Shown here: positions 2,256 to 55,618 of the stretch, piece after piece
Numbering within the stretch: position 1 is the stretch's first letter
How the letters are laid out: each line of letters begins with the position of its first letter
Virus record (IMG/VR): IMGVR_UViG_3300045988_121070
Length of the DNA stretch: 64,000 nt
From: a virus
Strand: one strand, 5' to 3'
Notes under the pieces: model-generated
The model's database searches: none
What the model was told of the DNA's origin: nothing
The model's input: only the letters and a program-made list of their open reading frames with translations
Program-made: the position numbers and the translations under genes

Positions 2256-2310
2256 GGGATTTTGAGGTTTTAAAGTCGCGATAAAATCGCGACATACAAG
2301 AAACGGGACA

Positions 2311-2673
2311 TTATTCGACTGGAATTACATTGGTAATGTCGTAGGCTTCACCACCTTTGCCAAAATCAACAGAGACACAACGGTCAGGACCACACCAGAA
2401 AACACCTGTATCGGCGAGAGTACCACGTTGTTTGCCAACCATGACCTTTTGACCTTTGCTTAACTTGCCGAACCATCGCTGTTGGAGAGTTTTACTCCAG
2501 ATGACTTCAAGGCGTTTGCCGCTATGGTCGTAGTGTACTGCCATGCCACCGAAGGTTGGTTCAAGAGCTTCTACCTTTTCGACGATCTGACGTTTAGAGA
2601 GGACAACATCAAAGTCCAGTTTTGCCAGTAGTGCATCTGGCAGTTTTTTACGAATTGCTGTTATAGGTTCCAT
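2311..2673 (-). CDS. Hypothetical protein (120 aa)
   Basis: ORF packed between the methyltransferase gene and a C-module repeat. Confidence 0.55.
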   Translation of the reverse strand: MEPITAIRKKLPDALLAKLDFDVVLSKRQIVEKVEALEPTFGGMAVHYDHSGKRLEVIWSKTLQQRWFGKLSKGQKVMVGKQRGTLADTGVFWCGPDRCVSVDFGKGGEAYDITNVIPVE

Positions 2674-2674
2674 A

Positions 2675-3442
2675 TTAAAATAATGTTTGTTGTGATAATT
2701 CTATTTTGATATTCTTCTCAGCCATTGCGAAATACTCAGGATGAATTTCAAAGCCAATGTAATGGCTTTTCTCCTTGATAGCTGCTATGGCTGTTGTTCC
2801 GCTACCTATGAAAGGGTCGAGAATTACCCCCCCCCGTGGCACGAAAAAATGTATGAGCGTCTGAGGTAAAAGAAGCGGGAATGCTGCCCGATGCTTACCT
2901 TTGTGGTTCTTTCCAATTCTCAACACATTGGATAGTTTACCACGTTCAGCGTTCAATAGAGGAAACTGGCGGCCTTTACAGTCGTGCTTATCGAAAGCGA
3001 TGATAAATTCATACTCACAGTTGAGCACTCCTGAGTGCATGGCCGGTTCAGACGATTTCTTATCCCAGATAAGGATATCACGGATGCGGTCAGCATAGTG
3101 GCCAAAGATTTTCATCAGAGCCACCTTATTACCTGTTATCATCATTATGTTATAGAAGACAGGTCCATTGCTGACACGTAACATTTCGTCGATACACTGA
3201 CATTGCCAGTTGAAATAGTCATCCATTGACATTGCATCATTCACACGGTTGTCGTAACGATTAGCAGGGAGGCCGGTATAACCAAACGTCTCTCCTTTCG
3301 TCCATTTGGTATATTTACCAGAATGGATGCGTAGGCCGAAGTTATAAGGCGGTGAAGTGATAACAGCATTTACGCTGTTATCCTCCATCTGCCTCATTCC
3401 TTCGAGACAATCCATGTTGTATATGGTGTCAATGTTCATCAT
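2675..3442 (-). CDS. DNA methyltransferase, beta class (N6A or N4C)
   Basis: Motif IV (VITSPPYNFG) precedes motif I (GGVILDPFIGSGTTAIAA). The likely start is MMNIDTIYNMDC at 3442; the tracked ORF up to 3619 overlaps the upstream gene. The GG of GGVIL is encoded by a 9-nt homopolymer at 2827-2835, in frame. Confidence 0.9.
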   Translation of the reverse strand: MMNIDTIYNMDCLEGMRQMEDNSVNAVITSPPYNFGLRIHSGKYTKWTKGETFGYTGLPANRYDNRVNDAMSMDDYFNWQCQCIDEMLRVSNGPVFYNIMMITGNKVALMKIFGHYADRIRDILIWDKKSSEPAMHSGVLNCEYEFIIAFDKHDCKGRQFPLLNAERGKLSNVLRIGKNHKGKHRAAFPLLLPQTLIHFFVPRGGVILDPFIGSGTTAIAAIKEKSHYIGFEIHPEYFAMAEKNIKIELSQQTLF

Positions 3443-3443
3443 A

Positions 3444-4271
3444 TTACTTCTGCTCTTCAGGAATTGGTTTGAAGACCAGGGCCGACCATAGCGCAGCGAA
3501 TTGGCGACCAGCGTATTTCGCAAGTTCGCTCGATTTGAAGGCCAGGCGAGCGCCGAAGCACGCGTTCGAGCGCGAGAAACCGAGACTCGAGTCCGCAGCC
3601 GAAAGACCGCAGCGCGCACCGCTAGCCGCGAGACCCCCGACGATCAGCAGCTGTGCCTTATCATCCTCACTCATTTCGTCTATCTCCTTCTGGGTATAGA
3701 GGTAGAAGTAAGGATAGTAGCGATATTCATCCTCAGTGAATTGTGGCACCCATCCTTCATTGAGGGCATAGGTGATGATGCGGAGCTGGATGTAAGCAAG
3801 CAGGTCAGGTGTACGTGGCGAATTAAACCAGAGGTCTATCATCAGTTCGTTAGCCAGTTTGTCGCCAGCCTGAGCACGGCGATTGAGGTCATTGCAAGCA
3901 TCCTCAAAGGTCTTGATGCGTTCTGTGACGGGGCGGTTGTCTGGAGTTTCTGTTTCATCCGCAGGTATGATGCAAGACCAATCCTCTGCCAAAATATCCT
4001 CCCATGAGGGAATGTAGTAGGTGGCAGAAGCCGGTGTTTTACCGTCGTCTGTGAAGGTAATCATAATCACCTGGTCGTGGTAGGATATTTCGCCACTTCC
4101 AACGGTGCTAATCTTTGGTTTGATAGATGCTGGCAGGGATGTCATCTTTGGCACCACATCCTTTGCTATACATTGGGGGATCTGCATGACGATTTCCTGA
4201 TTGTCATGCCACGTAGAACGGGAGGCATGGCCACCCTTTTTCAGACATTCAATAACTGCTGGAAAATTCAT
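3444..4271 (-). CDS. Protein with a DUF2829-like N-terminal domain
   Basis: MNFPAVIECLKKGGHASRSTWHDNQEIVMQIP resembles the DUF2829 pattern F.eAi.alk.Gkk..R.gW. The start is taken at 4271, downstream of an inverted A-module hairpin at 4292-4311. Confidence 0.6.
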   Translation of the reverse strand: MNFPAVIECLKKGGHASRSTWHDNQEIVMQIPQCIAKDVVPKMTSLPASIKPKISTVGSGEISYHDQVIMITFTDDGKTPASATYYIPSWEDILAEDWSCIIPADETETPDNRPVTERIKTFEDACNDLNRRAQAGDKLANELMIDLWFNSPRTPDLLAYIQLRIITYALNEGWVPQFTEDEYRYYPYFYLYTQKEIDEMSEDDKAQLLIVGGLAASGARCGLSAADSSLGFSRSNACFGARLAFKSSELAKYAGRQFAALWSALVFKPIPEEQK

Positions 4272-4316
4272 ATTACTTTTGGTTATTAGACCCCGCCGTT
4301 CTCGGCGGGGCATGGG

Positions 4317-5147
4317 TTATTGTTTTGTATCGGCGACAGAATCGCCGAGCACACTGTTATGTAGATCGGGACAGATAGACCAATCACGGCAGAAGCGGCG
4401 GATAGACTCTTTCCAAAGGATGCGGAAGTTGTGCTCTTTGGAGAGGCGCTGCACTTCACGGATGAAGCGCTCGCACTGGGCGGAGTCGTAGCGTTTCTTG
4501 CTGTAAGGAGAGAGTAGGCCAATGCGGAACTCCTGGCAGTCGGAGGCAATGGTGCGGATGATTGCCAGTGAGGAAACGAAGTCGATGACCGGCTCCATGC
4601 TGGCAAAGGTGCGGAACTGCATCTTTGAGAGATAGATAAGTGCTGTCTGACGCGATACGTTAGCCGGAGCACCAGGTTCGAGTTCGTCGTGGCCGGTGAG
4701 TGTGAAGCCGATGGTGAGGAGGTCACGGTGTGCATAGAGTGTGCCCATTACCCAATCCTCACGTACCCACCATGTAGCCTTGGTGAGGATGATGACGGGC
4801 ACCTGTTGGCTGAAGGCATATTCTATGCAGCTCAGGGTGAGCGTGATTTCCTCACGCAGCATCGGGTCTGTTGAGAAAGAAAAGAACAGCCCGCCATCGG
4901 CGGTAATCTGGTCACGATATTTATCAAGTTCTTGGCAGAAAAGATGATACGCTTTCTTAGGATCACCACCGAGTAGGGCCTTAATCTCTGGCACATCCTT
5001 ACCGAGAGTATGGCCAAACACACCACGCTTACAGTAGCAGTAGGTACAGGAATGAGAGCAGCCGTTGTAGAGGTTGCAAGCCCATGTGCTGTATTCTGCA
5101 GCAGCACCGTTAGGGCGGTAGATGGCGAGGTTCTTTGTTTTACTCAT
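4317..5147 (-). CDS. Radical SAM enzyme (276 aa)
   Basis: CxxxCxxC cluster motif: NGCSHSCTYCYC. Confidence 0.8.
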   Translation of the reverse strand: MSKTKNLAIYRPNGAAAEYSTWACNLYNGCSHSCTYCYCKRGVFGHTLGKDVPEIKALLGGDPKKAYHLFCQELDKYRDQITADGGLFFSFSTDPMLREEITLTLSCIEYAFSQQVPVIILTKATWWVREDWVMGTLYAHRDLLTIGFTLTGHDELEPGAPANVSRQTALIYLSKMQFRTFASMEPVIDFVSSLAIIRTIASDCQEFRIGLLSPYSKKRYDSAQCERFIREVQRLSKEHNFRILWKESIRRFCRDWSICPDLHNSVLGDSVADTKQ

Positions 5148-5655: not shown

Positions 5656-5714
5656 TGTTGTAAGATATTAAGAAATTGATACTATTGAGAGCCAGCCGAG
5701 AGCGGCTGGGCACT

Positions 5715-8096: not shown

Positions 8097-8810
8097 ATAA
8101 AATACCAATTATTTTCTGATTTGATATAAGTTTTAACACTTCCGAGGGAGATTTTTCCCTGAACGAGGAGATTTTCTTCCTTGAACTATCAAAATAACTT
8201 TTTGCAGCCCCATCCATCGGAACATGCAAGGTTGAAATTCGGGTAAAAAGTCGTGGAGAGTTACGGAAAGTTGTCAAAAAGACGTTTTGTTTTTCGTGTA
8301 AGTCGCTGATATTCATAGTGTTATTATGGTAAAAGTTATTTTACCACCTTTTTCTTCAAACTTTAGCGCATACAGGAGAAAAATAGAAATTCAGAAATAA
8401 CACTGAAAAGGAGCAAAACACGCCGCTTAACTGCTAACCCCGTTCCCCCACAACTTATTGATACTCAAAGGAGAAAGCGGAGCTTTCGCTTTATTGCTCA
8501 ATCACTTTTAGGGTGCGGGATTTTATTTTTTCTCCAAAAGAATTTTTCGCAAAATTAGGATGAGGTATGCCAAAATAATGTCATTTTGACTTTTTGGAGG
8601 GAGAAAATGGGCGCGAGGTGCGGTAGATAGGGAGAAGTGAGGGAGAATGATGCCATCCTTGAAATTACTTTTGCCGTCACTGAGGGGTGCGGGGTGGATA
8701 GATAGACCCAGCCGAGAACGGCTGGGAGTGGCTGAAGAGTCCTGGCCGCTATGACATAGCGACATACAGAACGGGAGCGGGAAAATAATTAGAAAATAGT
8801 GGCGAGAAAG

Positions 8811-8849: not shown

Positions 8850-8988
8850 GATTAAATTGGGGTAATATGCGCCTTTTGTCGCTATATGGAAGATAGCGGC
8901 GTTGCCGCTATGAATGATACCACCGTAGGTGCCCGCCAGTGACACCGACACTGACACAGCGCCCAGCCGAGAACGGCTGGGCTTTTTG
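8850..8988 (+). ncRNA. Candidate small RNA of about 140 nt (promoter-to-terminator unit with no credible ORF)
   Basis: Bounded by the promoter at 8811-8842 and the intrinsic terminator GCCCAGCCGAGAACGGCTGGGC + TTTTT (8961-8987). It has internal stem-loops and only an Arg/Glu-rich junk ORF. Confidence 0.3.
8961..8988 (+). terminator. Intrinsic terminator (A-module hairpin plus T5)
   Basis: A 9-bp GC stem with an AGAA loop, followed by TTTTT. Confidence 0.6.
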
Positions 8989-9236
8989 ATTAGTAACGAG
9001 CCACAGGGAGAGTACGGAGAGGATATTACCAACAGAGCGCGGAGGTGGCGATACAATCGCCACACAATAGACGAAACGGGGAGAGAGAATAATTGTAAAG
9101 AACGCCAGAAAGGGCGCGAGAGAGAATATTACCAACGGAGCGCAAGAGAGGATATTAGTAAAGGCGGTGGCCGTGCTTCACAGCACAGCCACCGAACGAA
9201 AGAATTACCGACAGAGCGGTAGTACAAGATGTATCT

Positions 9237-10490
9237 CTACTTAAAGCGGGAGAGGAGCAGGGTACTATTGGTACCACCGAAGCCGAAGGCGTTGCAGAGA
9301 ATGGTCTGTAACGGGGTGATGGTTGGCGCTGTTGGAATGCGCAGAGCTGCTGCCGTCTCGTCAGGGTGCTGGAGGTTGATGTGAGGCGTTACGAATCCGC
9401 CTTGCATCTGTATCAGGGCATATACTACCTGGGACACGCCGGACATCCAGCATTCGTGGCCGGTGAGGGCCTTTGTGCTGATGACAAAGGGACGGCTATC
9501 ACCATTTGCAGCGGCATAGCCACTACCTACGGAAAAGAGGCGGCGGATGGCTTCTGCCTCGGCGCGGTCGCCATCTGGGGTCGATGTGGCGTGAGCCATG
9601 ATAGCGGAGATACCAGGACCCAGCGGAGAACCGCTGGGCACAGTGGCGGCAGACAGAGCGGCGAGCATAGAGCGGTAGATAGCATCAGCGGAGGGTGTTG
9701 CGAGGTCGGGACTGGTGGTGAAGCCGTAGCCTTTGACCGTGGCCAAGGGTTTGCGATTGCCCATAGCGGCATGGGCTGCTGTTTCGAGAATGACGCAGGC
9801 AGCACCACCAGAAGGCACGAGGCCGTCGCGGTCGCGGTCGAATGGTCGTGATGCAGCGGTGGGGTTGTCGGTGCGGTGACTGAAGATGCCGAGCGCATCA
9901 AAGGAGGTATAGGCATGTAGGCCCACTTCCTGAGCGCCCACCACTATGCAGCAGTCGAGTTTGCCGGACTGGATAAGCGAATGAGCGAGACCGATAGCAT
10001 GACCGCCACCGGCGCAGGCTGCAGAGACGGTAAAGGAGAGACCACCGATGCCAAAGATAGAAGCCAGCGACATAGAGACCGAGCTGTTGAGTGTGCGGAA
10101 CACCATGCCGGCACCGAGTCGGCGCGAGTCATGGTATTCAGCCATGATAGCCTCTGTCTCAGCGAGGGCACCAGCGGTGCTGTCATTGCTAACAATAAGT
10201 CCGCAGCGGTAGAGGTCGGCCACTGGAGCCATAGCAAGCGCTTCCTTCATGGCCATGTAGCCATATTCGCCTGGTTCGGAGAGAGTGATGCGCTGTGAGC
10301 GTCGCAATCCCTGAGCTTTGATGTCAGGACGCGGGACGATACCCGTGAGGGGTGACTGGTAGCCGTAGGCGGTACGCTCAGGATCGATGCCGATGCCACT
10401 CTTTCCGAGACGGAGAGACTGAGCCACCTCCTGAACGGACTGGCCGATGCAGGACCAGATGCCCATGCCCGTGATTACTGTGCGTCGCAT
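9237..10490 (-). CDS. fabF: Beta-ketoacyl-ACP synthase (KAS I/II, FabF-like)
   Basis: Active-site SAACAGGGHAIG, HATSTPDGD (HxTxTxxGD) and C-terminal NAFGFGGTNSTLLL. Confidence 0.9.
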   Translation of the reverse strand: MRRTVITGMGIWSCIGQSVQEVAQSLRLGKSGIGIDPERTAYGYQSPLTGIVPRPDIKAQGLRRSQRITLSEPGEYGYMAMKEALAMAPVADLYRCGLIVSNDSTAGALAETEAIMAEYHDSRRLGAGMVFRTLNSSVSMSLASIFGIGGLSFTVSAACAGGGHAIGLAHSLIQSGKLDCCIVVGAQEVGLHAYTSFDALGIFSHRTDNPTAASRPFDRDRDGLVPSGGAACVILETAAHAAMGNRKPLATVKGYGFTTSPDLATPSADAIYRSMLAALSAATVPSGSPLGPGISAIMAHATSTPDGDRAEAEAIRRLFSVGSGYAAANGDSRPFVISTKALTGHECWMSGVSQVVYALIQMQGGFVTPHINLQHPDETAAALRIPTAPTITPLQTILCNAFGFGGTNSTLLLSRFK

Positions 10491-10740: not shown

Positions 10741-10767
10741 TTTGATGAATTTATGAATTTATGAATG
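10741..10767 (-). promoter_or_regulatory. TTCAT-heptad leader directly upstream of the ACP start
   Basis: The minus strand reads ATTCATAAATTCATAAATTCATCAAATC-ATG. The same leader type precedes at least 12 genes on both strands. Confidence 0.45.
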
Positions 10768-10769
10768 AC

Positions 10770-10832
10770 GGCGATTAAATCGCCTGGCAATAGACGAAAC
10801 AGAGCAGCGAGACCCAGCCGATAACGGCTGGG
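10770..10832 (+). repeat. Mosaic palindromic element (C module + ACGAAACA flank + A module)
   Basis: GGCGATTAAATCGCC TGGCAATAGACGAAACA ... CCCAGCCGATAACGGCTGGG, between the tape measure gene and the ACP gene. Confidence 0.85.
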
Positions 10833-10839: not shown

Positions 10840-13800
10840 CTAACCTTTCCAGAGGCGGTCGCCGGAGTTGCGGCGCATGAAGTTAGCGCCATCCTGAGAC
10901 TCCTGCGTGATGCCACCACGTCCGTATTTATTGACATGGAGGCCGTTGCGCTTGATAGCCAGCATGACGGCGGTAAACTCGGAGAGCGTAGAACGGAGGC
11001 CGTCGATATCCTCTTTGGTGATGGTGTTGTCCGACGGAGAACCGTCGGGAGTGGTGGTGCCATCAGTGCCGAGGAAATCAGAGAGGTTGCCTTCGTCGTA
11101 GGTGCGGTAGGCATGGCCATTTGAGTAGTTTTTGTCGAACTTCACGATAGCCGCGAGGAGGTCGGGACGAGCCATCTGCATGGCAGCCGTCGTTTCGCGT
11201 CCAATCACCATTTCTGGGCCACGTTCTCCGACGAGAGACGGTTGACCGTTGACCATGGTCGCTATGGGCGATGTGACGAGACCCGTCTGCAGTTGTGGTA
11301 CCTGGCGAGCCTGATAGACATAGCCATCCGTACCGAGGACGGGTGTGCGGTCGCCACCATAGCCAGCGGGCGAACCGCTGGAAGCGGGTGTAGCAGAGGG
11401 AGAGTAGCCGGATGGAGAGGGACTTCCGGCGGAAGAACCGCCGGACACACTCTGGACGTTACCACTGTCATAGGTGAGCATACCAGTGGCGAGTTTGACG
11501 TTAGGAGTTGCAGCATCAGCGCCACCACTCTCGTCACCACCAAAGGCGAGTCCGATAGCCCATGATAGCAATCCCATCAACAAGGCGGTGATGACACCGA
11601 TGAGCGGAATACCCCACCATCCGAGGGTGCCAATGATCTTAGCAGCACCACCAGCGATACCGAGACCCACCTTACCAGTGGTAGCCCCCGCTTCCTCTGC
11701 CAGTTCGGTAGCATTCGAGGTAGAGTGCTGTGTGAGGCGGGCAGCATCGCCCGTTGCCTGAGCCGTGAGCATCAGCGTCTGGTAGAGTTGCTGTATCTGC
11801 AACATCGTAGCCTGGTGCATGGTCTCGTCGGCTTCTTCCTGACGATAGTAGAGCTGCTTAGTGACGCGACGTGTGAGGTCTTGTGCGATGAGTTGCAGAG
11901 ACATCTTCACATACGACTTCAGCATATCCTTCAGGAGGTCTTTGAATTTGACATCCGACTGTTCGGTGTCGTAGATCATATTACCCAGCGACTCCCCTAC
12001 CCCTTCAGCGAACGTGTTAAGCGGTTCAGAGAAGTTTTGGAGGAGAGACACGCGCTCTTGGAACTTACGTGCCACCGAGTCGGCCATTTCAGACTGAGCC
12101 TCCATCATCTGACGTTTAGCATCCGTCAGCTGCTGTTCAGAGATTTTATCCTGTTCACGCAGACGCGCCATATCCTCATAATAGAGACGGGCGCGTTCAG
12201 CCAGCAGGCGATAGCGCAAGATTTCAGGGTCAGAATCCATATTCCAGGACATGCCCATCTGCTGTCCCACGTTCTTATCCGACTCGAAGCGTTGCGTATC
12301 GCTGTTGATGGTTGACAGCTGCTGTGTCGATTTGTCGATACTCTGAATGGTAGGATTGTTATTGAAAACAAAATCCGCACGGCGCTTTGCCTCGTCGTAG
12401 GCTTTCTTCTGAGCATCCGTATAAGCATCCGAGTATTCAATCAGTTTCTGGTAGAACACCTTGAACTGGTCGGCAGACATGTTGAGCAGCGAAGAAAGGC
12501 CCGTACCAGCGAGATATGACTTATACTCTTTACCGAAGAGGATGGTAAGCACCTTATCCGGCGCATCCTCACTATTCGCATCGACAGAGAGCAGTTCCAC
12601 GATGTTTTCGCGAGTAGCGGTGAAAGCCTTTTGCCACTGAGCGGTGCGGTCGTCGATGAACTGCTGGATAGCCTCGTTATTACCCTTCTGCGACCACCCC
12701 ATCATCTGAGCGATCTGTTCGGAAGTCAATTCGGCGACACCAAACTGTTCCATCTGGTTCTCGTAGTCGAGGTTGACCTTCCCCGTATAGTTCTTTTCCA
12801 GGAGCACCTTCTGACGGTCCTGGTAAGCCTTATTCTGCTGGTTGGCGTTTTTCAATTCGTTTTCTGTAGCCTTACGCCATATCTGATCGAGCAATACAGA
12901 ACCATTCTGTCCCAACTCCTTAGAAAGCGTGGTAATCATGTCCTTCAGTTTCTCGACATCATTATGGATAATGTTATCGAGCAGCTGCGTGGACTGATTT
13001 GTGCCGTCAGCAGACAGCGGTTCGTAGAGGTCGTTAAGCATCGACTGGCGGAACTGTGCCCAATCGTTCTCAGTACCCGCAATCGCCTGACGGACGTTAG
13101 CCAGTGCATTGTTCATGCGGATTGTCATGCCGTCCACCAGTTTCTTCTGGAGTTCAGAATCCATGCCCGTCTTTGTCGCCATTTCCGTGATGGCAGCAAT
13201 CTGACGCTCGTAGTAATTCTTGACGTTATCGACAATCGCCTGAGCCTTGCCCTGTTCCTCTCTCATTTCCTGACGGAGCGCCTTGCGACGGGCTGCCTCT
13301 TCCGCCTTACGGCGACGTTCTGCCTCCTTATCGGGTGCATCGTTATCAAGAGCACCAGGAGACTCGTCTTCGGTGGCGGTAACGAGATCGTCTTCAAACG
13401 GCTTCCACTTTTTGTTGACGCGGTTCATGGCGTTGGTAGCCGAGTAAGCCTGCGTAGCATAACGGGTGGCAGCATAAAGCATCCGTTCGGCCTGGGTAAG
13501 GGCGCGGGTGTTGTTGGCACGGACCTCATTTGGTGTAAGTGTGCTTTCAGGACCGCTATTCATTCGCATGTCGCGAACATAGCCATGCACATCGAACCAT
13601 TCCGTCGGTGACTTGCTGGAACGAGACTTGTAAGCATCAGCGGCTATTTCGCCATTGACACCCAGTTTCCTTGCCAGGTCCTTGTTGATTTCTTCAACAG
13701 ACTTGCCGGCTTTCTGCATATCATCGACATAGGCTTTGAGCCATGTGCCGTTGTAGGGAGAGCCACCCGCCACGTTATCGTATTCCGTGAGGCGGTCGGC

Positions 13801-37494: not shown

Positions 37495-37509
37495 TTAAAT
37501 AATTGAAAA

Positions 37510-42004: not shown

Positions 42005-42008
42005 TAGG

Positions 42009-42045
42009 GTTGCGATAGAATCGCAACATACAAGAAACGGAACAT
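42009..42045 (+). repeat. C-module element
   Basis: GTTGCGATAGAATCGCAAC ATACAAGAAACGGAACA. Confidence 0.8.
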
Positions 42046-42071
42046 TCACCAATTCATTAAAACATTAAATT

Positions 42072-44128: not shown

Positions 44129-44132
44129 GGAC

Positions 44133-44164
44133 GGCGATAAAATCGCCTGACAATAAACGAAACA
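44133..44164 (+). repeat. C-module element
   Basis: GGCGATAAAATCGCC TGACAATAAACGAAACA, 12 nt before the next ATG. Confidence 0.85.
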
Positions 44165-44175
44165 AAAATTGAGAC

Positions 44176-45177: not shown

Positions 45178-45180
45178 GGC

Positions 45181-45242
45181 GGCGATGCAATCGCCGGACA
45201 ATGGACGAAACAAACGAGAGGCCCAGCCGAGAACGGCTGGGC
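45181..45242 (+). repeat. Mosaic palindromic element (C + A modules). The A hairpin probably serves as a bidirectional terminator between convergent genes.
   Basis: GGCGATGCAATCGCC GGACAATGGACGAAACA AACGAGAG GCCCAGCCGAGAACGGCTGGGC, followed by TTCTGTTATTT. Confidence 0.8.
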
Positions 45243-45247: not shown

Positions 45248-45865
45248 TTATTTGCATAGGAAGTAGCGGGCGACGAGGAAGATGAGGACACCGAGGATGC
45301 CAAAGAGGGCGATGTAACCCAGATGGAGGACTAAGCCATCCCACCACGACTGAATGCGGGAGGGCGCTGGTTCTTTATATGATTGCTGATTGAGGGAGTC
45401 GAGCCAGTTGACCTGTTGGAGCATGTAGAGGGCTTCTGAGAGGGAGTCGGTACGGGCCGTTTCCTGTGATAGCTGCTGTTGGAGAGCAGAGATCTGTTGC
45501 TCGTAGCGGAGTTCTGTCTGGCGGGAAAGGTTGCGGTCGATGGTGCGGTTTTCCTGACGTACCTCACGGCCAAGGGAGTCGAGGTAGGTAGTGACGGACT
45601 CCTGAATGCGCTCAGTGGACTGTTCCTGTGTGGACTGCTGGGCGGTGATGCGAGCCTGCATCTGGGAGAAGAGGGAGTCGTAGCGGGAGAGCTGCTGTAA
45701 CATGGCTGCATACTGGACTTGCAAGGCACGGAGGCTGTCACCTTCGCTATGGGTGACAGTGGTGGTGGCGGTGCGAGACGTTGTGCAGGAGAGCACGGAG
45801 AAGACACAGAGGGCTGCTATCATATAGCAGCACACGAAACGAGGGAAGAGTGATTTTTTTGACAT
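45248..45865 (-). CDS. Lipoprotein with a coiled-coil and a C-terminal TM anchor (unimolecular-spanin-like architecture)
   Basis: Start at MSKKSLFPRFVCCYMIAALCVFSVLSCTTS (signal peptide plus lipobox-like LSC). Central heptad-rich region. C-terminal LVLHLGYIALFGILGVLIFLVARYF. Confidence 0.55.
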   Translation of the reverse strand: MSKKSLFPRFVCCYMIAALCVFSVLSCTTSRTATTTVTHSEGDSLRALQVQYAAMLQQLSRYDSLFSQMQARITAQQSTQEQSTERIQESVTTYLDSLGREVRQENRTIDRNLSRQTELRYEQQISALQQQLSQETARTDSLSEALYMLQQVNWLDSLNQQSYKEPAPSRIQSWWDGLVLHLGYIALFGILGVLIFLVARYFLCK

Positions 45866-45938
45866 GGCTATAATTGCTTTGATTACTGAGGCAAAGGTAG
45901 GGAGAATGGGCGAGAACATGGGGACAAAGAAGGAGACG

Positions 45939-46072
45939 GCGATGGAATTGCCGAGCAAGAGACGAAGCGAGACCCAGCGCTAAAGCGCGGGGCATAGAAC
46001 GAAAAGCCCCACCGAGAACGGCGGGGAGTAGTGGAGGGGTTCATGGTCGCTATGGCATAGCGACATGCCAAA
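45939..46072 (+). repeat. Dense mosaic of four palindromic modules (degenerate C, A-variant, A, C)
   Basis: GGCGATGGAATTGCC.., CCCAGCGCTAAAGCGCGGGG, CCCCACCGAGAACGGCGGGG AGTAGTGG, GGTCGCTATGGCATAGCGAC ATGCCAAACA. Confidence 0.85.
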
Positions 46073-46095
46073 CAAAGGGGTAAAAAAGCGTAACT

Positions 46096-47565
46096 TCAGG
46101 GCAGGCGGTACTGGATTTTAGAGCGGGGGAAGTATTTGCGCACAAGAGAAAACCAGAAGTCCTGATAGATGCCTTTGGCGATGGTGTTGCCCTGGTCGTC
46201 GGTGGTAGGTTCTATCTGGTCGAAGATTTCCTTGCCGGCGAGGGCGACGGTGAGTGTGTGAGTTTCTTCGTCGTAGCGCTCGATGTTGATCTGACGAGCG
46301 CGGAGAGGGGTCTGTGCGCTGAGTTCCTGCATCAGCGAACGCCACCTACTTTCTGCCTGCTGCTGGACGAAGAGGTCGTACTGACGTTTGCGCTCTACCT
46401 CCAAACGGCGAGCCTCGTTGGTCTTATTCTTGACCCATGTCTGCAGGAGGGTGAGGACATATTCGGCTACATGGTCTGGCTGTGTCTTCTCCACCTGGCG
46501 GCGCACATCATCATAGGCATAGTTGCAGAAGTCGTCGAGCCAGTCGTCAGCAACATCTTTAGCCACTTCGAGGAGGTCATAGGCATGGAGGTCGGACCAC
46601 TGACGAGTAAGGGCATTGATGAGTGCCTGTATCTGGTTGTGGCGCTTGCGTTCCTGTTCGCGTTCGATGCCGAGGGCACCAGGGACAATGACAAACTCGA
46701 TATGGGTAGGATTTCCCTTTTTGCGCCCATCCTTATAGAGCGGTTCGTAGGTGAAAGAGAAGTCTATTTTGCGGTCAGCAGAGAACGTATCCATTTCGGC
46801 CTTAGAAGGATCGAGAATGAGTTTCTTGACCTTTGAAAACTTATGGAAAGGATTGTCGGTAGGTTTGACATCGGGCTTCTCGGCCTTATGAGTGGCGACA
46901 TAGGTAGCATCGTCGATGCCGAGAAATTCGCAGAGTTCGGGGTACTCCACCTCGTTACGTCCTTTGTACTTGAAGGTGGAGAGATAGATATAGATGCGCG
47001 GTGTGCGCTGTTTCTTAGAGAACTGGGCTATGCGGGCGATATGGTCAGTATAGCCACGATCCATAGAGAGGAAATCGTTGACATTCTCCTTATCCATCTT
47101 GACACGGATTTTGCCGGTGCGCCAGCCATTATCAGAGGTAGGCATTTCGATGCGAGAGAAGAGCGAGGCGAAGACATAGACGGTCTTATTGCCCTTTTTC
47201 TTCGGGTAGCCTATCTTCATGCTTACGAGGTCGCCGAGTGCCTGAGCCAGTTCGGGATAGTGGCCAGGAGTAACACCCAGGTCACGAGCCTCGATCTCGA
47301 AGTCAACGGAGGTATTCATTTCCTCTGGTGCAAATAGAGGAAGCCAGAGCTGCTGGTTTTTTTGGTGTTCGGAGGCAGAATAGGCGATGCGGTCCTGCAA
47401 CTTTTCGAGTACACCCATGAGGACGCGCTGGTGCATGAGGGAGAAGTCGCCTGCCACCTGAGCATAGACTTTTGGATTGTAGATCCATTTCTGGTCGCGG
47501 AGTTCGCGGATGATGCTATTGTCAGACTTGATGAGCTGCTGCATCTTATCAGTTTTCTTTGCCAT
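46096..47565 (-). CDS. Plasmid-type replication initiator (Rep_3/RepB-like)
   Basis: The N-terminal IKSDNSIIREL..DFSLMHQRVLMGVLEKLQ resembles the Rep_3 initiator pattern. An iteron array and an AT-rich tract lie directly upstream. Confidence 0.6.
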   Translation of the reverse strand: MAKKTDKMQQLIKSDNSIIRELRDQKWIYNPKVYAQVAGDFSLMHQRVLMGVLEKLQDRIAYSASEHQKNQQLWLPLFAPEEMNTSVDFEIEARDLGVTPGHYPELAQALGDLVSMKIGYPKKKGNKTVYVFASLFSRIEMPTSDNGWRTGKIRVKMDKENVNDFLSMDRGYTDHIARIAQFSKKQRTPRIYIYLSTFKYKGRNEVEYPELCEFLGIDDATYVATHKAEKPDVKPTDNPFHKFSKVKKLILDPSKAEMDTFSADRKIDFSFTYEPLYKDGRKKGNPTHIEFVIVPGALGIEREQERKRHNQIQALINALTRQWSDLHAYDLLEVAKDVADDWLDDFCNYAYDDVRRQVEKTQPDHVAEYVLTLLQTWVKNKTNEARRLEVERKRQYDLFVQQQAESRWRSLMQELSAQTPLRARQINIERYDEETHTLTVALAGKEIFDQIEPTTDDQGNTIAKGIYQDFWFSLVRKYFPRSKIQYRLP

Positions 47566-47628
47566 AGTTACGAAGATTTACCCCTTAAATGACTGGTTGC
47601 TATGACACAGCAACATGCACGGACGGGG

Positions 47629-47815
47629 GAGAGTTACGGAAAATGACCCCTTACGGAAGAGTTGCGATGGTAGCACAACATAGAGAACAACTGGGAGAGA
47701 GTTACGGAAAATGACCCCTAACGAAGAGAGTGGCCGGAAATGCACCCCACCGTTACCAGGAACAGCCCCAAGGTTACGGAGAATGCCACCGAAGGCTACG
47801 GAGAAATACCCCACC
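47629..47815. repeat. Iteron array upstream of rep
   Basis: GAGAGTTACGGAAAATGACCCCT at 47629-47651 and 47697-47719, plus degenerate copies (GGTTACGGAGAATGCCACC, CTACGGAGAAATACCCC) up to 47812. Confidence 0.7.
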
Positions 47816-47867
47816 GAAACGGCAGAAAGCCAGTATTTACGGGGGTTGCGAGCCAATGGAGGGCGCA

Positions 47868-47945
47868 GGTAATTATATATTCTTATAATCATATAAAAGA
47901 AAATTTATCAATACTATATAATAAATAAAGATATATATCAAGTTT
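47868..47945. other. AT-rich tract (candidate DNA-unwinding element of the origin)
   Basis: About 80 nt at roughly 85% A+T, between the iterons and the 18-mer repeats. Confidence 0.5.
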
Positions 47946-48009
47946 AGGGGTAAAAAAGCGTAACCCTATGGGGATAAGGAACGTAATTTAGGGGTAAAAA
48001 AGCGTAACC
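47943..48009. repeat. Two copies of TTTAGGGGTAAAAAAGCGTAACC (candidate centromere or Rep-binding sites). A third copy is at 46075-46095.
   Basis: Exact 18-mer GGGGTAAAAAAGCGTAAC at 47947, 47991 and 46078. The copies flank rep and lie just downstream of the par operon. Confidence 0.6.
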
Positions 48010-48371: not shown

Positions 48372-49235
48372 TTATTCGGGATTTTGGGTTTTGATGAGTT
48401 CGGAAACGAAGTCGCGGTAGTCGTGAGAGGCGGTACATTCGGGGGCATAGGTGAAGATATCCTCATGCTGGAACTGGCTTTCGCCTACCTTGACACACTG
48501 ACGTATGCGCGTCTTAAAGATAGTGGTGTCGTACTGGTCGCGGAGGTAGTCGGTAGTCTCACGAGCCAGTCGGGTGCGCTCGTCGGCCATGACAATGAGC
48601 AAGCCCCGCATATCGAGGTCGGCATTGAGTTTGCGCTTGACATTCTTGTAGGCTTCGACCATGCGGCCAATGCCATCGACTGAGAGCGAGCCGAGCTGCA
48701 CGGGGATGATGACACCAGAGGCGGCAGCGAGCGCGTTGAAGGTGAGTTCGGAGAGTGCGGGGGCACAATCGATAAGCACATAGTCGAAGGTGTCTTCAAT
48801 GTATTCGCCATCGAGTGCCTTTGCACCGAGGTAGAGGTGGTCCATGTCGAAGATGTCATTGCCAAAGAGTGACGAGAGCACCAGCTTGGACTGCATCTGA
48901 CGATGGAGGTCAGGGTCGATGTCGGACAGTCCAGCAGAGGCAGGGACATAATAGAGACCCTTGCGAGACTGATAGACAGGCAGGTGGTTGTTGTCGCCAT
49001 CGCGGAGCGCATCGGCTACGGTGAGAGTGGTGAGGTTCTTAGCGTGGTACTCCTTCATCTTATCGCGCCAGCCGAGGAGGGAAGAAAGATTGCCCTGCGG
49101 GTCGAGATCGATGCAGAGAATGCGCAGACGGCTGTTGCGCCGAAGAAGACCGGCAGCGACGTTCTGAACGGTGGTGGTTTTGGCTACCCCACCCTTGTTG
49201 TTGGCGAATGCCAGGATTTCTTTAATACGTGCCAT
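48372..49235 (-). CDS. parA: ParA-family partition ATPase
   Basis: Deviant Walker A NNKGGVAKTTT, plus the DCAP and IIPV motifs. Confidence 0.85.
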   Translation of the reverse strand: MARIKEILAFANNKGGVAKTTTVQNVAAGLLRRNSRLRILCIDLDPQGNLSSLLGWRDKMKEYHAKNLTTLTVADALRDGDNNHLPVYQSRKGLYYVPASAGLSDIDPDLHRQMQSKLVLSSLFGNDIFDMDHLYLGAKALDGEYIEDTFDYVLIDCAPALSELTFNALAAASGVIIPVQLGSLSVDGIGRMVEAYKNVKRKLNADLDMRGLLIVMADERTRLARETTDYLRDQYDTTIFKTRIRQCVKVGESQFQHEDIFTYAPECTASHDYRDFVSELIKTQNPE

Positions 49236-50266: not shown

Positions 50267-51901
50267 CTATACGCGGAGGGTGCCGGCTATGAGGGGCAGA
50301 CAGAAGACGGCAGCACCCAGGACTACTGCACCAAAACAACAGAGGACTGCAGCACAGGCGACAGTGGCGAGGACTGCGGCGGTGGTGCTATGGTGAGGAG
50401 TGGCGGGTTCCTCGGTGGGAGAACCACCGAGCGCTGTGGTAGGAGCGGCTTCTTCGTCAGAGGCGGCAGGGGTAGCGGGGGCGGGAGCTTCGTCGGAGAA
50501 GAGAGAGGGGGCGAGCCAGGCTTCTTCCTCTTCGTCATCGGTGGCGATAGTATCGCCACATACGGGACAATCGGCGGGGGCTTCGTCAGAGGCGGAAGAT
50601 AAGGGGTTATTTTCCGTAACATTGTCCCCTACCCCAGCCGAGAGCGGCTGAGAGGGAGCGACGGCAGAGCCATCGCCTACGGAGGAAACAGGAGCGCCGG
50701 CAGAGGCTATAACACGATAGACCTTGGGGGTAATGTCGTTTGACAGACCCACCTCGATGGTGGCACCTGGATAGATGCCGAGGTCGTTGGCTGTCTTCTC
50801 TGAATAGAGGGAGGCGGAATGTACTTCGCGGTAGAGGAGGGTCACAGAGTCGAAGTAGGCCACGGGTGTACGCTTGCCACTCTTTCCGACCGTCACCTCT
50901 ATGCGGCGGCAGGTGGTGATGGCCTTAGCGGGTGCGAACTTATAAGCGATAGAGCCGTGAGGATGGTGTGCGGTGGCACCGAGGGCGCGGAAATAGTCAT
51001 CGTGCATGATGCGGAAGACGATACCATCAACGGGAAAGTCGAAAGCGGCACGTTCTGCCTCGCGTTTCTCCAGGAGCTGTTGAACATCGTCGAGGGTGTG
51101 GGCGGTCCATACTTCTGGACGGTGGATGAAGCAAAGGCGGTGGAGGAAGTCGAACTTATGCCAGGGGTAGCCGAGCGGGGTGCAAGAAAACTGAATCTGA
51201 CTGCTGATAGCGTCGTCGATATAGGCATCCCAGGGGATGAAGTCGAGCATGGCGAGGTCGATAGCGTCTGGTACAGACTGGTTGCAGAGAGCGGAAGCTG
51301 CTGTGCGGCAATCGGTGTAACGAGTGGAAAGGAGGTGGAGGTTGCGCTTGCTGCAGACAATTTCGCCACGTACCTCGATACGACCGGCGAGGGAGTAGGT
51401 GGCACCCGTCTCGCGGAGCTGCTGAGGGATGGAGGGGATGCAGAGGGCATGGGCGGTGATGTCCTGCCCTACCCTACCATCGCCACGAGTGGCGGCGCTG
51501 ATGAGTTGGCCATCCTGATATACGAGAGAGCATGAAATGCCGTCGTACTTCCACATGGCTACGAGCTTGTAACCGCCAGTGTGGTTGTCGCCGGTGAGGG
51601 CGTTCATGCGCTGGTTGGTCTTGTTGATCCATGAAGCAACCTTCTGAATGTCCTGAGCCTTCTGACAGGAGAGCATGGGGGTGCGGTGAGCGATACGGCC
51701 ATTGCCATTGAGGTCGGAGCCTACCTGCTGGGTGGGACTGTCTGGGAGGATGTGTGAGGGATTGAGGCGTTCGTACTGCTCGATCTGAGCGACGAGGGCA
51801 TCAAACTCGGCATCGCTCACAACGGGAGCGGATGCGACGTAGTACATGTGGGAGTAGTAGTTGGCGCGGCCAACGGCGTTGATGTAATCTGAATGTGTCA
51901 T
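50267..51901 (-). CDS. ligA: NAD-dependent DNA ligase (adenylation + OB domains only) with an aberrant C-terminal tail
   Basis: YYVASAPVVSDAEFDAL (domain Ia), the adenylation lysine motif WKYDGISCSLVY (KxDG), and an OB-like region. The Zn/HhH/BRCT domains are absent. The last 150 aa or so are encoded by A, C, B and D palindromic modules plus a hydrophobic stretch. Confidence 0.8.
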   Translation of the reverse strand: MTHSDYINAVGRANYYSHMYYVASAPVVSDAEFDALVAQIEQYERLNPSHILPDSPTQQVGSDLNGNGRIAHRTPMLSCQKAQDIQKVASWINKTNQRMNALTGDNHTGGYKLVAMWKYDGISCSLVYQDGQLISAATRGDGRVGQDITAHALCIPSIPQQLRETGATYSLAGRIEVRGEIVCSKRNLHLLSTRYTDCRTAASALCNQSVPDAIDLAMLDFIPWDAYIDDAISSQIQFSCTPLGYPWHKFDFLHRLCFIHRPEVWTAHTLDDVQQLLEKREAERAAFDFPVDGIVFRIMHDDYFRALGATAHHPHGSIAYKFAPAKAITTCRRIEVTVGKSGKRTPVAYFDSVTLLYREVHSASLYSEKTANDLGIYPGATIEVGLSNDITPKVYRVIASAGAPVSSVGDGSAVAPSQPLSAGVGDNVTENNPLSSASDEAPADCPVCGDTIATDDEEEEAWLAPSLFSDEAPAPATPAASDEEAAPTTALGGSPTEEPATPHHSTTAAVLATVACAAVLCCFGAVVLGAAVFCLPLIAGTLRV

Positions 51902-53349: not shown

Positions 53350-53433
53350 TATTTTTCGAGAAAAATTTGATTTTTGGCGAAAATTTTTTGTTTTAGGGGA
53401 AATTTCCCGCTATTTTCCGCTATTTTCCGCTAC

Positions 53434-53485
53434 GGTCGCTATGACATAGCGACATACGGAACAGGCCCAGCCGAGAACGGCTGGG
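53434..53485 (+). repeat. Mosaic palindromic element (C + A modules), preceded by three copies of TTTTCCGCTA
   Basis: GGTCGCTATGACATAGCGAC ATACGGAACAGG CCCAGCCGAGAACGGCTGGG. The direct repeats are at 53404-53433. Confidence 0.85.
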
Positions 53486-53838: not shown

Positions 53839-53893
53839 GATGTTTTCTGATTTAGTCCCAGCCGAAAGCGGCTGGGAGGTGTGGATATTATGA

Positions 53894-54367: not shown

Positions 54368-54934
54368 TTATGCAGCTTTGTGTGAGACTGAAAGGCGTTT
54401 CGGGTTGACGAAGTTCTGACCGTCCCAGGTGACAGAATAGAGAGAGTGATATTCGTTGATGTCGTGATCTGAATTTTTATGGTGCAAGAAATAATGCACG
54501 GCGGTGGCATCGTCTGGGCGGTCGAAATACCACTTGCGTCTGCGTCCGTCCCAGTCGGTGATGTTCATATAGTACCACCGACTGTTGGTAATCTTAGGCA
54601 GATGATATGGCAGCCATTCAGCCAGCGTGTTCCATACGCGCTCGAAAATCTTAGGACCACAAGAGACCTCAGAAGAGCATGAGCCAGGATAGAGGGCAGA
54701 ATGGTGGCGGCGATAGTCCTGCCACCACTTATAGGTTTGCTTACACGTCCAGCCATTCAGGGTGAGACCACGCATAGCAACAGAGGCGATAGTCTGGGTG
54801 TCATAGTGACCCAACTTGATATGAGGTGAATGCAGCATGGGCAGAGTGCCCTCGTTCTCGTTAGCATAACGATTTATCATGCGCTGTTCTTCGACCATAT
54901 ATGGTCTGATAACTCCAAAATTAAATTTAGCCAT
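54368..54934 (-). CDS. Hypothetical protein (188 aa)
   Basis: ORF with a TTCAT-type leader. Trp/Tyr/His-rich. Confidence 0.55.
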   Translation of the reverse strand: MAKFNFGVIRPYMVEEQRMINRYANENEGTLPMLHSPHIKLGHYDTQTIASVAMRGLTLNGWTCKQTYKWWQDYRRHHSALYPGSCSSEVSCGPKIFERVWNTLAEWLPYHLPKITNSRWYYMNITDWDGRRRKWYFDRPDDATAVHYFLHHKNSDHDINEYHSLYSVTWDGQNFVNPKRLSVSHKAA

Positions 54935-54991
54935 AATTGTTTAGTGTTTTTTAGTGAAACGGTGAATTGATGAATTTATGAATTGATGAAA

Positions 54992-55426
54992 TCATGCAGC
55001 AAAATTGAATGTGAGTTGCACGGCATGATCGGAAGAGGTCTGACGGCGAGAGCGTGAAGGGTGGGAGCGGTGCCAGGCAGCACGACGGGCTGCAGCCTGA
55101 CGTGCAAGCTGTTCTTGCTGCTGGATGTAGGACTGCTCATCGGCAGAGAGGGCGGGAGCCTGAAAGGTGTCGAGAGCCTTCAGGAACTCACGTTGTGAAA
55201 CCTCAGAGTCGTTAATACGATACTCGGTGTTAGTGTAAGAGTGATGGCGATGGCGGACACGGCCAGTGCGATAGGTGAAAGCACCCAGGCGGTACTCACG
55301 ATAGAACCATACATCGCGCCACCATGTAAGGCCCCATGAGCGAGACCATGCACGAGAGGCATTGTCGCTGTTGTCGAAGGTGTGACCTCGGCGGGCGGCT
55401 TCGTTCTTAAATTCTTGAAGTGTCAT
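54992..55426 (-). CDS. Hypothetical protein (144 aa)
   Basis: Start taken at MTLQEFKNEAARRGH (55426), downstream of the promoter/leader cassette. Confidence 0.55.
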   Translation of the reverse strand: MTLQEFKNEAARRGHTFDNSDNASRAWSRSWGLTWWRDVWFYREYRLGAFTYRTGRVRHRHHSYTNTEYRINDSEVSQREFLKALDTFQAPALSADEQSYIQQQEQLARQAAARRAAWHRSHPSRSRRQTSSDHAVQLTFNFAA

Positions 55427-55482
55427 AAGCGAAAAATGTTTTTTGTGAGGGATGCCCTCGGTTAAACTTTTATTTGTCGGTG

Positions 55483-55514
55483 CAAAGATACGAATATAAT
55501 TTGATATTACCAAA
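55483..55514 (-). promoter_or_regulatory. Bacteroidota-type promoter
   Basis: The minus strand reads TTTG (55514-55511), a 20-nt spacer, then TATCTTTG (55490-55483). Leader hairpin GAGGGCATCCCTC at 55447-55459. Confidence 0.6.
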
Positions 55515-55558
55515 TATTTTTCGATAAAATTTTGATTTTTGGTGATTTTTTTTGTTTT

Positions 55559-55618
55559 GGCGATAAAATCGCCTGACAATAAACGAAACAGAGCACCCCA
55601 CTGGGGGAACCAGTGGGG
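55559..55618 (+). repeat. Mosaic palindromic element (C + B modules)
   Basis: GGCGATAAAATCGCC TGACAATAAACGAAACA GAGCA CCCCACTGGGGGAACCAGTGGGG. Confidence 0.85.

Follow-up and report, generated by a model that had tools for sequence, protein, structure and literature searches.

Two families of hairpin elements with a shared strand orientation in a putative phage-plasmid of gut or rumen Bacteroidales

The 64,000-nucleotide stretch of DNA analysed here as a whole (hereafter the window), from the IMG/VR virus record IMGVR_UViG_3300045988_121070, carries about 67 GC-rich hairpin modules, about one per kb, and all but two of them have the same strand up. These modules belong to two families, with 36 copies of family 1, 26 copies of family 2 (a count that takes in two degenerate copies inside the replication origin) and five copies of a variant called D. 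Our best reading, to which we give a probability of roughly 45%, is that they are elements of the repetitive extragenic palindrome (REP) type tied to the DNA strand, family 1 doubling as gene-end hairpins. We commit ourselves to it because of the selection acting on the hairpins, the strand rule that they obey, their turnover, their sharing with hosts, and the logic of two known systems, namely REPs with their REP-associated tyrosine transposases (RAYTs) and the insertion sequences IS200/IS605. The window is an instance of dense, co-oriented, REP-like elements in phage genomes, found together with an unusual strand-specific codon usage.

Anatomy and orientation of the hairpin families

Modules were recovered by a scan for perfect hairpins and by two covariance models, searched on both strands. 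The original prediction, made from the letters of the window, had announced more than 50 palindromic modules, about 95% of them in one orientation; this density and this bias hold, the modules were recovered where it had placed them, its combinations of neighbouring modules (C-A, A-C, A-B-C, C-B and A-B) are present as listed, and the two exceptions that it named, an A module at 4291-4310 and a B module at 23573-23595, are the only reversed ones. Its division into four modules, A to D, reduces to two families, A and B being one family (family 1) and D a variant of C (family 2).

In family 1, the stem is variable and the loop conserved: a GC stem of 7-9 bp and of variable sequence (e.g. CCCAGCCG, CCAGCGG, CCGCTGG, CTCGATGG, GCTGGCAG or CCCCACTGG) ends in a closing G-C pair and an (N)AGAA loop, and is followed 3' by a flank of the type CACAGTGG, AGTGG or CACACT. 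The A motif has 16 matches at no more than two mismatches (0.00 expected), and the B motif eight (0.22 expected). Family 2 consists of a hairpin G-Y-N-GCGAT nnn ATCGC-N-R-C, or a 6-bp version of it (stem 6-8 bp, loop 3 nt), followed by a tetramer (ATAC or a related one), 2 or 9 nt of spacer and the octamer ACGRRACA. In the D variant, the stem is weak and is followed by CTAC-GGAGAA. Read on the opposite strand, the tetramer forms a tag next to the hairpin foot, reading GTAT for the majority of C copies and GTAG for the D type.

The pairing of the hairpins is under selection in both families. Indeed, 95.8% of the stem cells are paired in family 1 and 92.6% in family 2, with 17 and 29 cells, respectively, changed on both sides, values reached by none of 500 shuffles in either case; these compensatory changes exceed those of both shuffled and slid controls. 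DNA folding z-scores range from -3 to -6 for the modules (-0.9 for the D type), and Rfam covariance models gave no match at the gathering score in the whole window. The copies are listed below by coordinates, strand and description (KAS, beta-ketoacyl synthase; ORF, open reading frame).

Family 1
4291..4310, minus, loop reversed (TTCT); relatives carry AGAA here
4330..4348, plus, TCGGCGA-cagaa-TCGCCGA
5692..5709, plus, A type
8707..8726, plus, A, exact 20-mer
8961..8982, plus, A, with a T-run; loop TTCT in a 96% relative, module absent in two others
9619..9638, plus, in frame in the KAS gene (encodes PSGSPLG), in a variable loop of the synthase
10813..10832, plus, A
11031..11048, plus, in the 3' part of the tape-measure ORF
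11363..11381, plus, B, in the tape-measure ORF
11425..11445, plus, B, in the tape-measure ORF
17302..17320, plus, B, terminator-like on the minus strand
18419..18438, plus, A
18455..18473, plus, B
18986..19005, plus, A variant
19020..19040, plus, B
21031..21050, plus, A
21652..21671, plus, hairpin; orthologue with a different, fully compensated stem
22303..22323, plus, hairpin; absent in two relatives
23540..23559, plus, A variant
23573..23595, minus, loop reversed (TTTCC); GGGAA in a relative
24262..24282, plus, in the last codons of the primase-helicase ORF
28540..28559, plus, A
30096..30115, plus, in a plus-strand ORF
30464..30482, plus, at a convergent junction; deleted in relatives
31012..31030, plus, in frame in a minus-strand ORF (PSGSPAG)
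34083..34102, plus, in a plus-strand ORF
34129..34147, plus, in a plus-strand ORF
45221..45242, plus, A, at a convergent block boundary, terminator-like on both strands; loop flipped in one relative
45973..45992, plus, variant
46007..46026, plus, A variant
50411..50431, plus, in the tail of the ligase ORF
50633..50652, plus, in the tail of the ligase ORF
53466..53485, plus, A
53856..53877, plus, A
55596..55618, plus, B variant
57975..57994, plus, hairpin

Family 2
2270..2314, plus, hairpin, ATAC, 9-nt spacer form and ACGGGACA
8740..8784, plus, element
9040..9084, plus, element; loop flip ACA/TGT (9045) in a relative
10763..10807, plus, element; presence/absence difference of about 44 nt versus 86% relatives
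17258..17302, plus, element
17517..17561, plus, element
18486..18530, plus, ATACGGGACA form
21062..21106, plus, element
23492..23536, plus, element
30422..30466, plus, directly 3' of a plus-gene stop
32090..32134, plus, between plus genes; family 1 module instead in three relatives
32602..32646, plus, between plus genes
34228..34272, plus, degenerate, in a plus ORF
36182..36226, plus, in the plus block
37456..37500, plus, between plus genes
42004..42048, plus, between plus genes
44126..44170, plus, between plus genes; 17-nt internal deletion in a relative
45174..45218, plus, at the end of the plus block
45808..45852, plus, element
45931..45975, plus, found by the model, outside its training set
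46041..46085, plus, just 3' of rep; copy common to all lineages, sisters included
47591..47636, plus, degenerate, between origin iterons; perfect hairpin in a 97% relative
47656..47700, plus, degenerate, between origin iterons
50536..50580, plus, in the tail of the ligase ORF
53430..53474, plus, element; a relative carries a different family 2 and family 1 pair here
55552..55596, plus, element

D variant (weak hairpin, CTAC, GGA...)
9508..9533, plus, in the minus-strand KAS gene
30059..30084, plus, in a plus ORF
33403..33428, plus, in a plus ORF
34167..34192, plus, in a plus ORF
50658..50683, plus, in the tail of the minus-strand ligase ORF

All 24 full-length covariance matches of family 2 (at least 20 bits) lie on the plus strand, as do two weaker copies in the origin, and the window holds no independent minus-strand match, those recorded being the palindromic cores of the same loci. 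The D modules are on the plus strand in five cases out of five, three of them within plus-strand ORFs and two within minus-strand ORFs. In the hairpin scan, the purine loop of family 1 is on the plus strand in 34 copies and reversed in two; the covariance search for this family recovered about 30 loci, two of which score best on the minus strand.

The genes of the window form, as originally described, a minus-strand block (1-29.5 kb), a plus-strand block (29.6-45.2 kb) and a second minus-strand block (45.2-63.6 kb), and modules occupy the space from one stop codon to the next start. Context and orientation were counted after reducing the modules of 71 related loci (739 kb) to unique sequences and setting every locus in its majority orientation, with ORFs called by a greedy longest-ORF rule; many of these loci are orthologous, so that the counts are not independent. 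From these counts, the two families behave differently.

Family 2 was found 73 times on the majority strand and never on the other, with 42 copies between minus genes, 11 between plus genes and 12 at convergent junctions. The intergenic space of the window amounts to 7785 nt between minus genes and 1713 nt between plus genes, and the ratio of 42 to 11 matches it; the copies are thus distributed as the available space would predict. What sets the orientation of family 2 is the DNA strand rather than transcription, and this independence from genes points to a step acting on a DNA strand.

Family 1 was found 175 times on the majority strand and eight times on the other, with 82 copies between minus genes, three between plus genes and 11 at convergent junctions. 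It is depleted about five-fold between plus genes (3/85 versus an expected fraction of 0.18, P about 1e-4), and within the plus block of the window it occurs only at the convergent ends (30464 and 45221), in a minus-strand gene (31012) or inside plus ORFs (30096, 34083 and 34129). In a simple terminator scan, about 10 of the 36 copies, with T-rich tails, score as putative terminators on one or both strands. Furthermore, L226, a lineage further removed whose primase-helicase is 72% identical, has family-1-like modules that point the opposite way with respect to the backbone; five hairpins were found there, four of which sit among plus genes, in a block of negative skew. For family 1, ‘follows transcription’ and ‘follows the strand’ are not separable, and the simpler reading is that it looks like a host-type gene-end hairpin, given this gene context, its position at gene ends in hosts (see below), the terminator scan and the inversion in L226. 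Accordingly, the original claim of an orientation indifferent to transcription stands for family 2 and its D variant and is not supported for family 1. The same division applies to the claim that the modules are not simple terminators, which suits family 2, devoid of a tail and present in both gene orientations, whereas family 1 may consist of terminator-like hairpins oriented with transcription.

In L226, modules of this kind with a conserved CCACAGCCACCGTT flank were also noted at 5435, 17103, 19198 and 19512, three of these four in the negative-skew plus-gene block. A 14-mer scan for this type of flank returned, among the matches listed, chance matches.

The strand-locking of family 2 is true and general beyond this replicon. 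Viral and metagenome collections supplied 185 further loci, which were searched with the covariance model of family 2 (R1); here too, many loci are orthologous and ORFs follow the greedy longest-ORF rule. Among the loci with at least two matches, all lie on one strand in 22 out of 22, the sole inverted pair being on a 1.3-kb contig (L402), and the intergenic copies comprise 17 sense and 34 antisense to genes. As for the proposed check against GC skew, third codon positions are richer in G on the strand bearing ATAC and ACGRRACA in 42 of 47 viral and 27 of 30 metagenome loci (69/77 together); among these 30 metagenome loci, genes are mostly sense in 16 and mostly antisense in 14. Three bacterial chromosomal loci have the same skew sign, one of these skews (+0.010) being negligible. 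The ATAC tag (reverse complement GTAT) was found in 119 of 156 unique copies, a frequency (76%) that is inflated because two of the collection scans used patterns containing CATAC.

Lineages, turnover and hosts

Sister lineages, with a Rep initiator 60-69% identical or a primase-helicase 85-86% identical, were compared with the window; those covering the surroundings of rep are collinear with it, with the same gene order and orientation at about 36-57 kb. These sisters contain 0-1 GC-rich hairpins and 1-2 family 2 matches per 13-20 kb, with a skew at third codon positions (GC3 skew) of about -0.17 to +0.06, whereas the clade of the window displays 4-10 hairpins per 13-20 kb and a GC3 skew of +0.18 to +0.28 on the same strand. 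Thus, dense modules and strong skew appear together in one clade. It is also in this clade only that family 2 copies are inserted into the spacers between the origin iterons, and these copies are decaying in the present genome.

Genomes 85-98% identical to one another reveal a turnover that is mobility-like. Loops have been inverted in place, with stems and flanks unchanged, between genomes 95-98% identical (AGAA/TTCT at 4291, 8961 and 45221; GGGAA/TTTCC at 23573; ACA/TGT at 9045; GCA/TGC at 32095). Stems have been replaced with full compensation at 21652, 31012, 50411, 11031, 57975 and 50633, and the module type has been swapped at the same site at 32095 and 53435. The comparison of related phages for presence or absence, suggested with the original prediction, detected modules gained or lost at 8961, 10770, 22303, 30464 and 44133. 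Some modules are in frame in real genes, e.g. in a variable loop of the ketoacyl synthase.

Although flips are frequent, loops stay purine-rich on the plus strand in more than 95% of cases; something therefore acts on the unpaired bases. Composition alone was rejected as the cause, third-position base ratios predicting a loop bias of about 4:1 against the 175:8 observed.

Both families also occur outside this group of replicons. The exact A 20-mer gave 17 single matches among 185,579 species genomes; it is present once each in several chromosomal contigs of Prevotella/Bacteroidaceae, at gene ends, next to GH88/GH28, CstA and PurN-type genes. For family 2, a 21-base pattern gave at least the matches listed in rumen and gut metagenomes. 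Copies lie between pdxA and a Fe-alcohol dehydrogenase gene on a 354-kb Bacteroidales-type contig that also carries a BACON-domain gene, and others lie next to capsule and phosphoribosyl-pyrophosphate synthetase genes on a 112-kb Bacteroidales-type contig. Among the family-2-bearing loci tested, 13 have no protein similarity to this genome; together with further loci bearing this family, they encode Mu-like, P22-like, SPP1-like and crAss-related proteins. A family 2 copy found no match in the collections of cultured phages and plasmids. These elements are thus not private to the phage, but belong to a host clade and its mobile elements. Because of the exact A 20-mer in Prevotella/Bacteroidaceae genomes and the BACON-domain gene beside a family 2 copy, the sequences point to Bacteroidales as hosts. 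The original prediction had set its elements apart from ordinary host REPs seen only because the DNA was that of a host: the DNA does read as that of a phage-plasmid, but both families also reside in host-type chromosomes.

Strand asymmetry and the explanations weighed

The whole replicon is asymmetric. GC skew stays positive from one end of the window to the other, with no switch at the origin. GC3 skew measures +0.265 for plus genes and, on the coding strand, -0.271 for minus genes, so that an excess of G of about 0.27 marks the plus DNA strand whichever way the genes run. Codon usage depends accordingly on the gene strand, CTC accounting for 48% of leucine codons in minus genes and 8% in plus genes, and oligomers are biased in all three gene blocks (CGATAG 50 versus CTATCG 0; CGGAG 126 versus CTCCG 8; GCGG 494 versus CCGC 103). 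Similar strand ratios were noted for GCGGAG (45:0) and CGGTGA (45:0). Among 1037 polarised substitutions, transitions at plus-strand purines (G>A 337, A>G 179) are about two-fold above those at plus-strand pyrimidines (C>T 121, T>C 77) per base, in all three gene blocks. The dominant change, G>A on the plus strand, runs against the G-richness of this strand, so that the skew looks selected or out of equilibrium; a mutation-driven skew was rejected on this ground. Loci of relatives that span most of the approximately 40 kb outside the window show the same module orientation. Such a uniform orientation, together with a non-switching skew, fits replication in one direction, and from composition only we infer that the circle may be copied in this way from the iteron origin.

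According to our best reading, hairpin elements of 20-45 nt, from two families also present in host-type chromosomes and unrelated phages, would have spread into the gene boundaries. Family 2, with its hairpin, tag at the foot, fixed spacer and conserved 8-mer, would be REP-like. Its insertion or its retention would depend on DNA being single-stranded at the fork, in a replicon that the iteron origin would serve in one direction only; the enzyme, acting in trans, would be a Y1/HUH protein of the host (RAYT- or IS200-like), of the kind evoked in the original prediction. Family 1 would be a host-type gene-end hairpin, acting as terminator or 3'-end stabiliser for minus-strand operons, so that its uniform orientation would mostly reflect transcription. 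Unpaired loop bases would flip by hairpin-mediated inversion, and loops would be kept purine-rich on the plus strand by the same replicon-wide strand pressure as codon usage. As for the strand exposed, the sign of the GC skew suggests the plus strand.

Several results weigh against this reading. Three of them suggest that the exposed strand is the minus strand instead: the two-fold higher C>T rate on that strand; the stem mismatches of family 2, read on the plus strand as 23 A.C versus five G.T, when mutation bias and stem make-up lead to an estimate of about 1.2:1; and the position of the tag. Moreover, the tag is mostly GTAT, not the canonical GTAG. The candidate enzyme is also missing from what was searched: Y1/HUH families are absent among the best 25 of 33 Pfam families listed for 83 window ORFs, among the listed Pfam matches of 53 ORFs from the rest of the genome (as originally noted for the window, no RAYT-like gene is visible in either part), and among the best 25 of 44 families listed for 148 ORFs of other family-2-bearing phages, and tblastn with an IS200 TnpA sequence gave no match in 4.47 Mb of loci. 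A RAYT-like gene (262 aa, with NHVH and YIHQNP motifs) does accompany a family 2 copy on the bacterial contig L453, but it is flanked by a different palindrome family. These long palindromes, CCTATCACTGGGGCC...GGTGATAGG (8549-8578 and 9440-9520 of that contig), lie one upstream and, as an inverted pair, downstream of the RAYT-like gene, with which they appear to form a separate REP/RAYT system in the same kind of host.

The modules share several features with REP/RAYT systems. Modules of both kinds are short GC-rich hairpin-forming palindromes (20-45 nt), mostly extragenic and downstream of genes, with several sub-types clustered in mosaics, present in chromosomes and subject to rapid turnover. 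One end of a REP bears a conserved tag, GTAG or CGTC (PMC3733652), with which the GTAG of D and the GTAT of most C copies compare, family 1 being without a tag of this type. They differ in that no cognate RAYT gene for the present modules was found in the searches above, copies in a locus are co-oriented rather than arranged as inverted doublets (REPINs), stems are short and perfect with 3-nt loops and a second conserved 8-mer at a fixed spacer, and the modules are dense in phage genomes, some of them in frame in genes.

With IS200/IS605, family 2 shares a hairpin with a short conserved sequence at a set distance and an orientation tied to the replication strand rather than to genes, the direction of replication being deduced here from skew. 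In REP/RAYT and IS200/IS605 systems, Y1/HUH enzymes read a hairpin with its short tag on single-stranded DNA, the lagging-strand template being their substrate (PMC6006769, PMC3733652); RAYT subclasses peculiar to Bacteroidetes are also described (PMC6006769). Family 2 is, however, an element of about 40 nt with a single hairpin, not a gene between two subterminal hairpins, and no TnpA was found in the searches above. The term BIME-like (for bacterial interspersed mosaic element) in the original description must be abandoned: mosaic clusters of palindromic units at gene ends, as at 8316-9237, do recall those of enterobacteria, but BIMEs are defined by REPs in alternating orientation (PMC2817692), and all units are co-oriented here.

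In Rickettsia, palindromic elements of about 100-150 nt, which are chromosomal, are inserted in frame in protein genes and tolerated as surface peptides; the copy in frame in the KAS gene at 9619 is comparable, though shorter. The Rickettsia elements are not known to be strand-locked. To our knowledge, REP-type elements are regarded as chromosomal. Literature searches on REPs and phages found no case of such elements in a phage, and those on palindromic or stem-loop phage repeats, Bacteroidetes/Prevotella REPs and Prevotella phage-plasmids found nothing specific.

A bolder version of our reading can be formulated, which we put forward tentatively and consider somewhat unlikely as a whole. Family 2 would be an undescribed REP-like element of gut and rumen Bacteroidales, common to chromosomes and many unrelated phages and inserted strand-specifically at forks by a host enzyme of single-stranded DNA acting in trans, and its burst in one clade would mark a switch in replication mode that exposes one strand and is also the source of the Borrelia-like strand-specific codon usage. 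The orientation of family 2 would then report the replication direction of its carrier replicon.

Alternatively, both families could act at the level of transcripts, as terminators, 3'-end stabilisers or processing sites, their orientation being a by-product of gene strand and of purine pressure on the unpaired bases of the plus strand. This would account for modules filling the space between stop and start codons, for the association of family 1 with minus genes and host gene ends, for the terminator-like features of about a third of its copies, for loops that flip between close relatives and yet remain dominated by the purine state, and for orthologous sites where the module type differs but a module of some type is retained. 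In family 1, A.C mismatches outnumber G.T ones, which also fits the folding of minus-sense RNA, although mutation bias alone predicts an excess of about 2:1. With intrinsic terminators, family 1 indeed has in common a GC-rich hairpin after stop codons and at convergent junctions, and a hairpin identical to it stands at Prevotella gene ends; it differs from them by a T-rich tail in only about one third of copies, a sequence-conserved loop and flank, and some copies in coding regions. For family 2, the explanation fares worse: its asymmetric flank cannot act in RNA in both gene orientations, yet is equally frequent and conserved in both, and no U-tract is present on either side. The D copies, in ORFs of both orientations, and the loop bias, far above the 4:1 expected from third positions, are also difficult to accommodate, and we judge a transcript-level role for both families unlikely.

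Family 2 could also consist of replication signals, i.e. single-strand initiation (ssi) or primosome-assembly sites on the strand left single-stranded during unidirectional or strand-displacement replication, read by the phage primase-helicase or by host PriA/DnaG. Precedents are the ssi signals of the plasmids RSF1010 and F and the complementary-strand origin of G4. The uniform strand of family 2, aligned with skew, its hairpin with a conserved flank at a fixed distance, the two copies among the origin iterons and a genome that encodes a primase-helicase, a PriCT_2 protein, a sliding clamp and a ligase are all in line with such a function, as is a spacing of about one copy per 2.7 kb, on the scale of Okazaki fragments. 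Yet gaps of 4-6 kb without any module occur in the window, and the collinear sisters with a primase-helicase 85% identical have only 1-2 copies per 20 kb, which makes the element dispensable there. Besides, family 2 resides in unrelated phages (Mu-like ones included) and in chromosomes with quite different replication machinery, its origin copies are lineage-specific insertions in decay, and the origin has no opposite-strand copy to start the leading strand. Such a role appears distinctly improbable.

Finally, the flank of family 2 could be a polar double-stranded site, either a half-site for Rep or a signal for a translocase or nuclease comparable to Chi or to the FtsK-orienting polar sequences (KOPS), which are polar oligomers co-oriented with the G-rich strand. 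The octamer ACGRRACA occurs 24 times on the plus strand of the window and never on the minus strand, and TACGGRRMA 13 times versus two; four of these TACGGRRMA sites are origin iterons and eight lie directly 3' of family 2 or D hairpins. However, sister iterons conserve only GTTACG....TTTACCCC, with a variable middle, and the purine-rich middle shared here is therefore lineage-specific and probably compositional; the Rep half-site lost weight accordingly. Family 2 also occurs in replicons without this Rep, co-varying stems are not required by a double-stranded protein site, and one orientation around the whole circle is incompatible with KOPS logic. We regard this explanation as very improbable.

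Three further candidates were rejected: N4-type hairpin promoters, as orientation is independent of genes and no giant RNA polymerase is in view; boxB/N-type antitermination loops, as the loops would be purine in RNA for plus genes only; and target hairpins of diversity-generating retroelements, the hairpins being far too numerous for the reverse transcriptase ORF outside the window (no search for variable and template repeats was made).

If the strand-tied, REP-like reading is correct, a REP-type family at about one copy per kb in a phage-plasmid, recurring in Mu-like, P22-like, SPP1-like and crAss-related phages, would lead to a single-strand DNA enzyme of Bacteroidales, and, should its orientation be set at the fork, would mark the direction of replication in uncultured phages and plasmids. 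The joint occurrence, in one clade, of dense modules and strand-specific codon usage, both absent from its collinear sisters, constitutes a natural experiment on the influence of replication mode on phage genomes. The more ordinary part is that half of the modules (A and B) resemble host-type gene-end hairpins.

The replicon and its other features

We take the window to belong to a phage-plasmid (iteron/Rep/ParA type, about 100 kb) of gut or rumen Bacteroidales, because of its predicted plasmid-type maintenance module and of relatives at 81-98% DNA identity found on IMG/VR contigs of about 100 kb. No near DNA match to the window was found among cultured phages and plasmids, and proteins identical to its own come from human-gut metagenomes. 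The maintenance module comprises:

46096..47565, minus, Rep initiator; weak Rep3_C match, homologues 60-98% identical adjoin the same iterons
47567..48009, plasmid-type origin with six direct iterons (GTTACGGAAAATGACCCC type), an AT-rich stretch and two inverted iterons
48372..49235, minus, ParA-type partition ATPase

A small ORF (48025-48438) also belongs to this module, and 8-bp TATGAAT tandem repeats at 49305-49360 may be a centromere.

The window also encodes a tape-measure protein, an NAD ligase, a sliding clamp, DNA methyltransferases, a primase-helicase-like protein of 1215 aa and a PriCT_2 protein. Auxiliary genes are an acyl carrier protein and beta-ketoacyl synthase pair (9237-10738), ThyX (5715-6647) and a Tad2-like anti-Thoeris protein (3444-4313). 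Radical SAM, GNAT, HicA and several DNA methyltransferase (N6/N4 and C5) families are among the Pfam matches of window ORFs, without assigned positions, and a Dam methylase is encoded just outside the window. Outside the window, the genome (loci L001-L054) also has an ORF for a reverse transcriptase (RVT_1), which may belong to a diversity-generating retroelement.

Several module-containing ‘ORFs’ are not genes. Thus, no gene is called over the 900 bp of 8316-9237, where five or six modules crowd together with a hairpin whose stem measures 12 bp (9165-9194); a spurious 180-aa minus-strand ORF arises there because the purine-rich plus strand provides no stop codons for the minus strand. The same stretch contains one copy of a single hairpin, GAAAGC-GGA-GCTTTC (8473-8487), which resembles, presumably by chance, the promoter hairpin of the N4 virion RNA polymerase.

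Lastly, a second repeat-rich region occupies 63610-64000, with a 24-nt inverted repeat at 63610-63663 and 22-23 bp direct repeats containing AGTTAGAGAAAAA that extend to the end of the window; this region may serve as a second origin, or else in partition or packaging.

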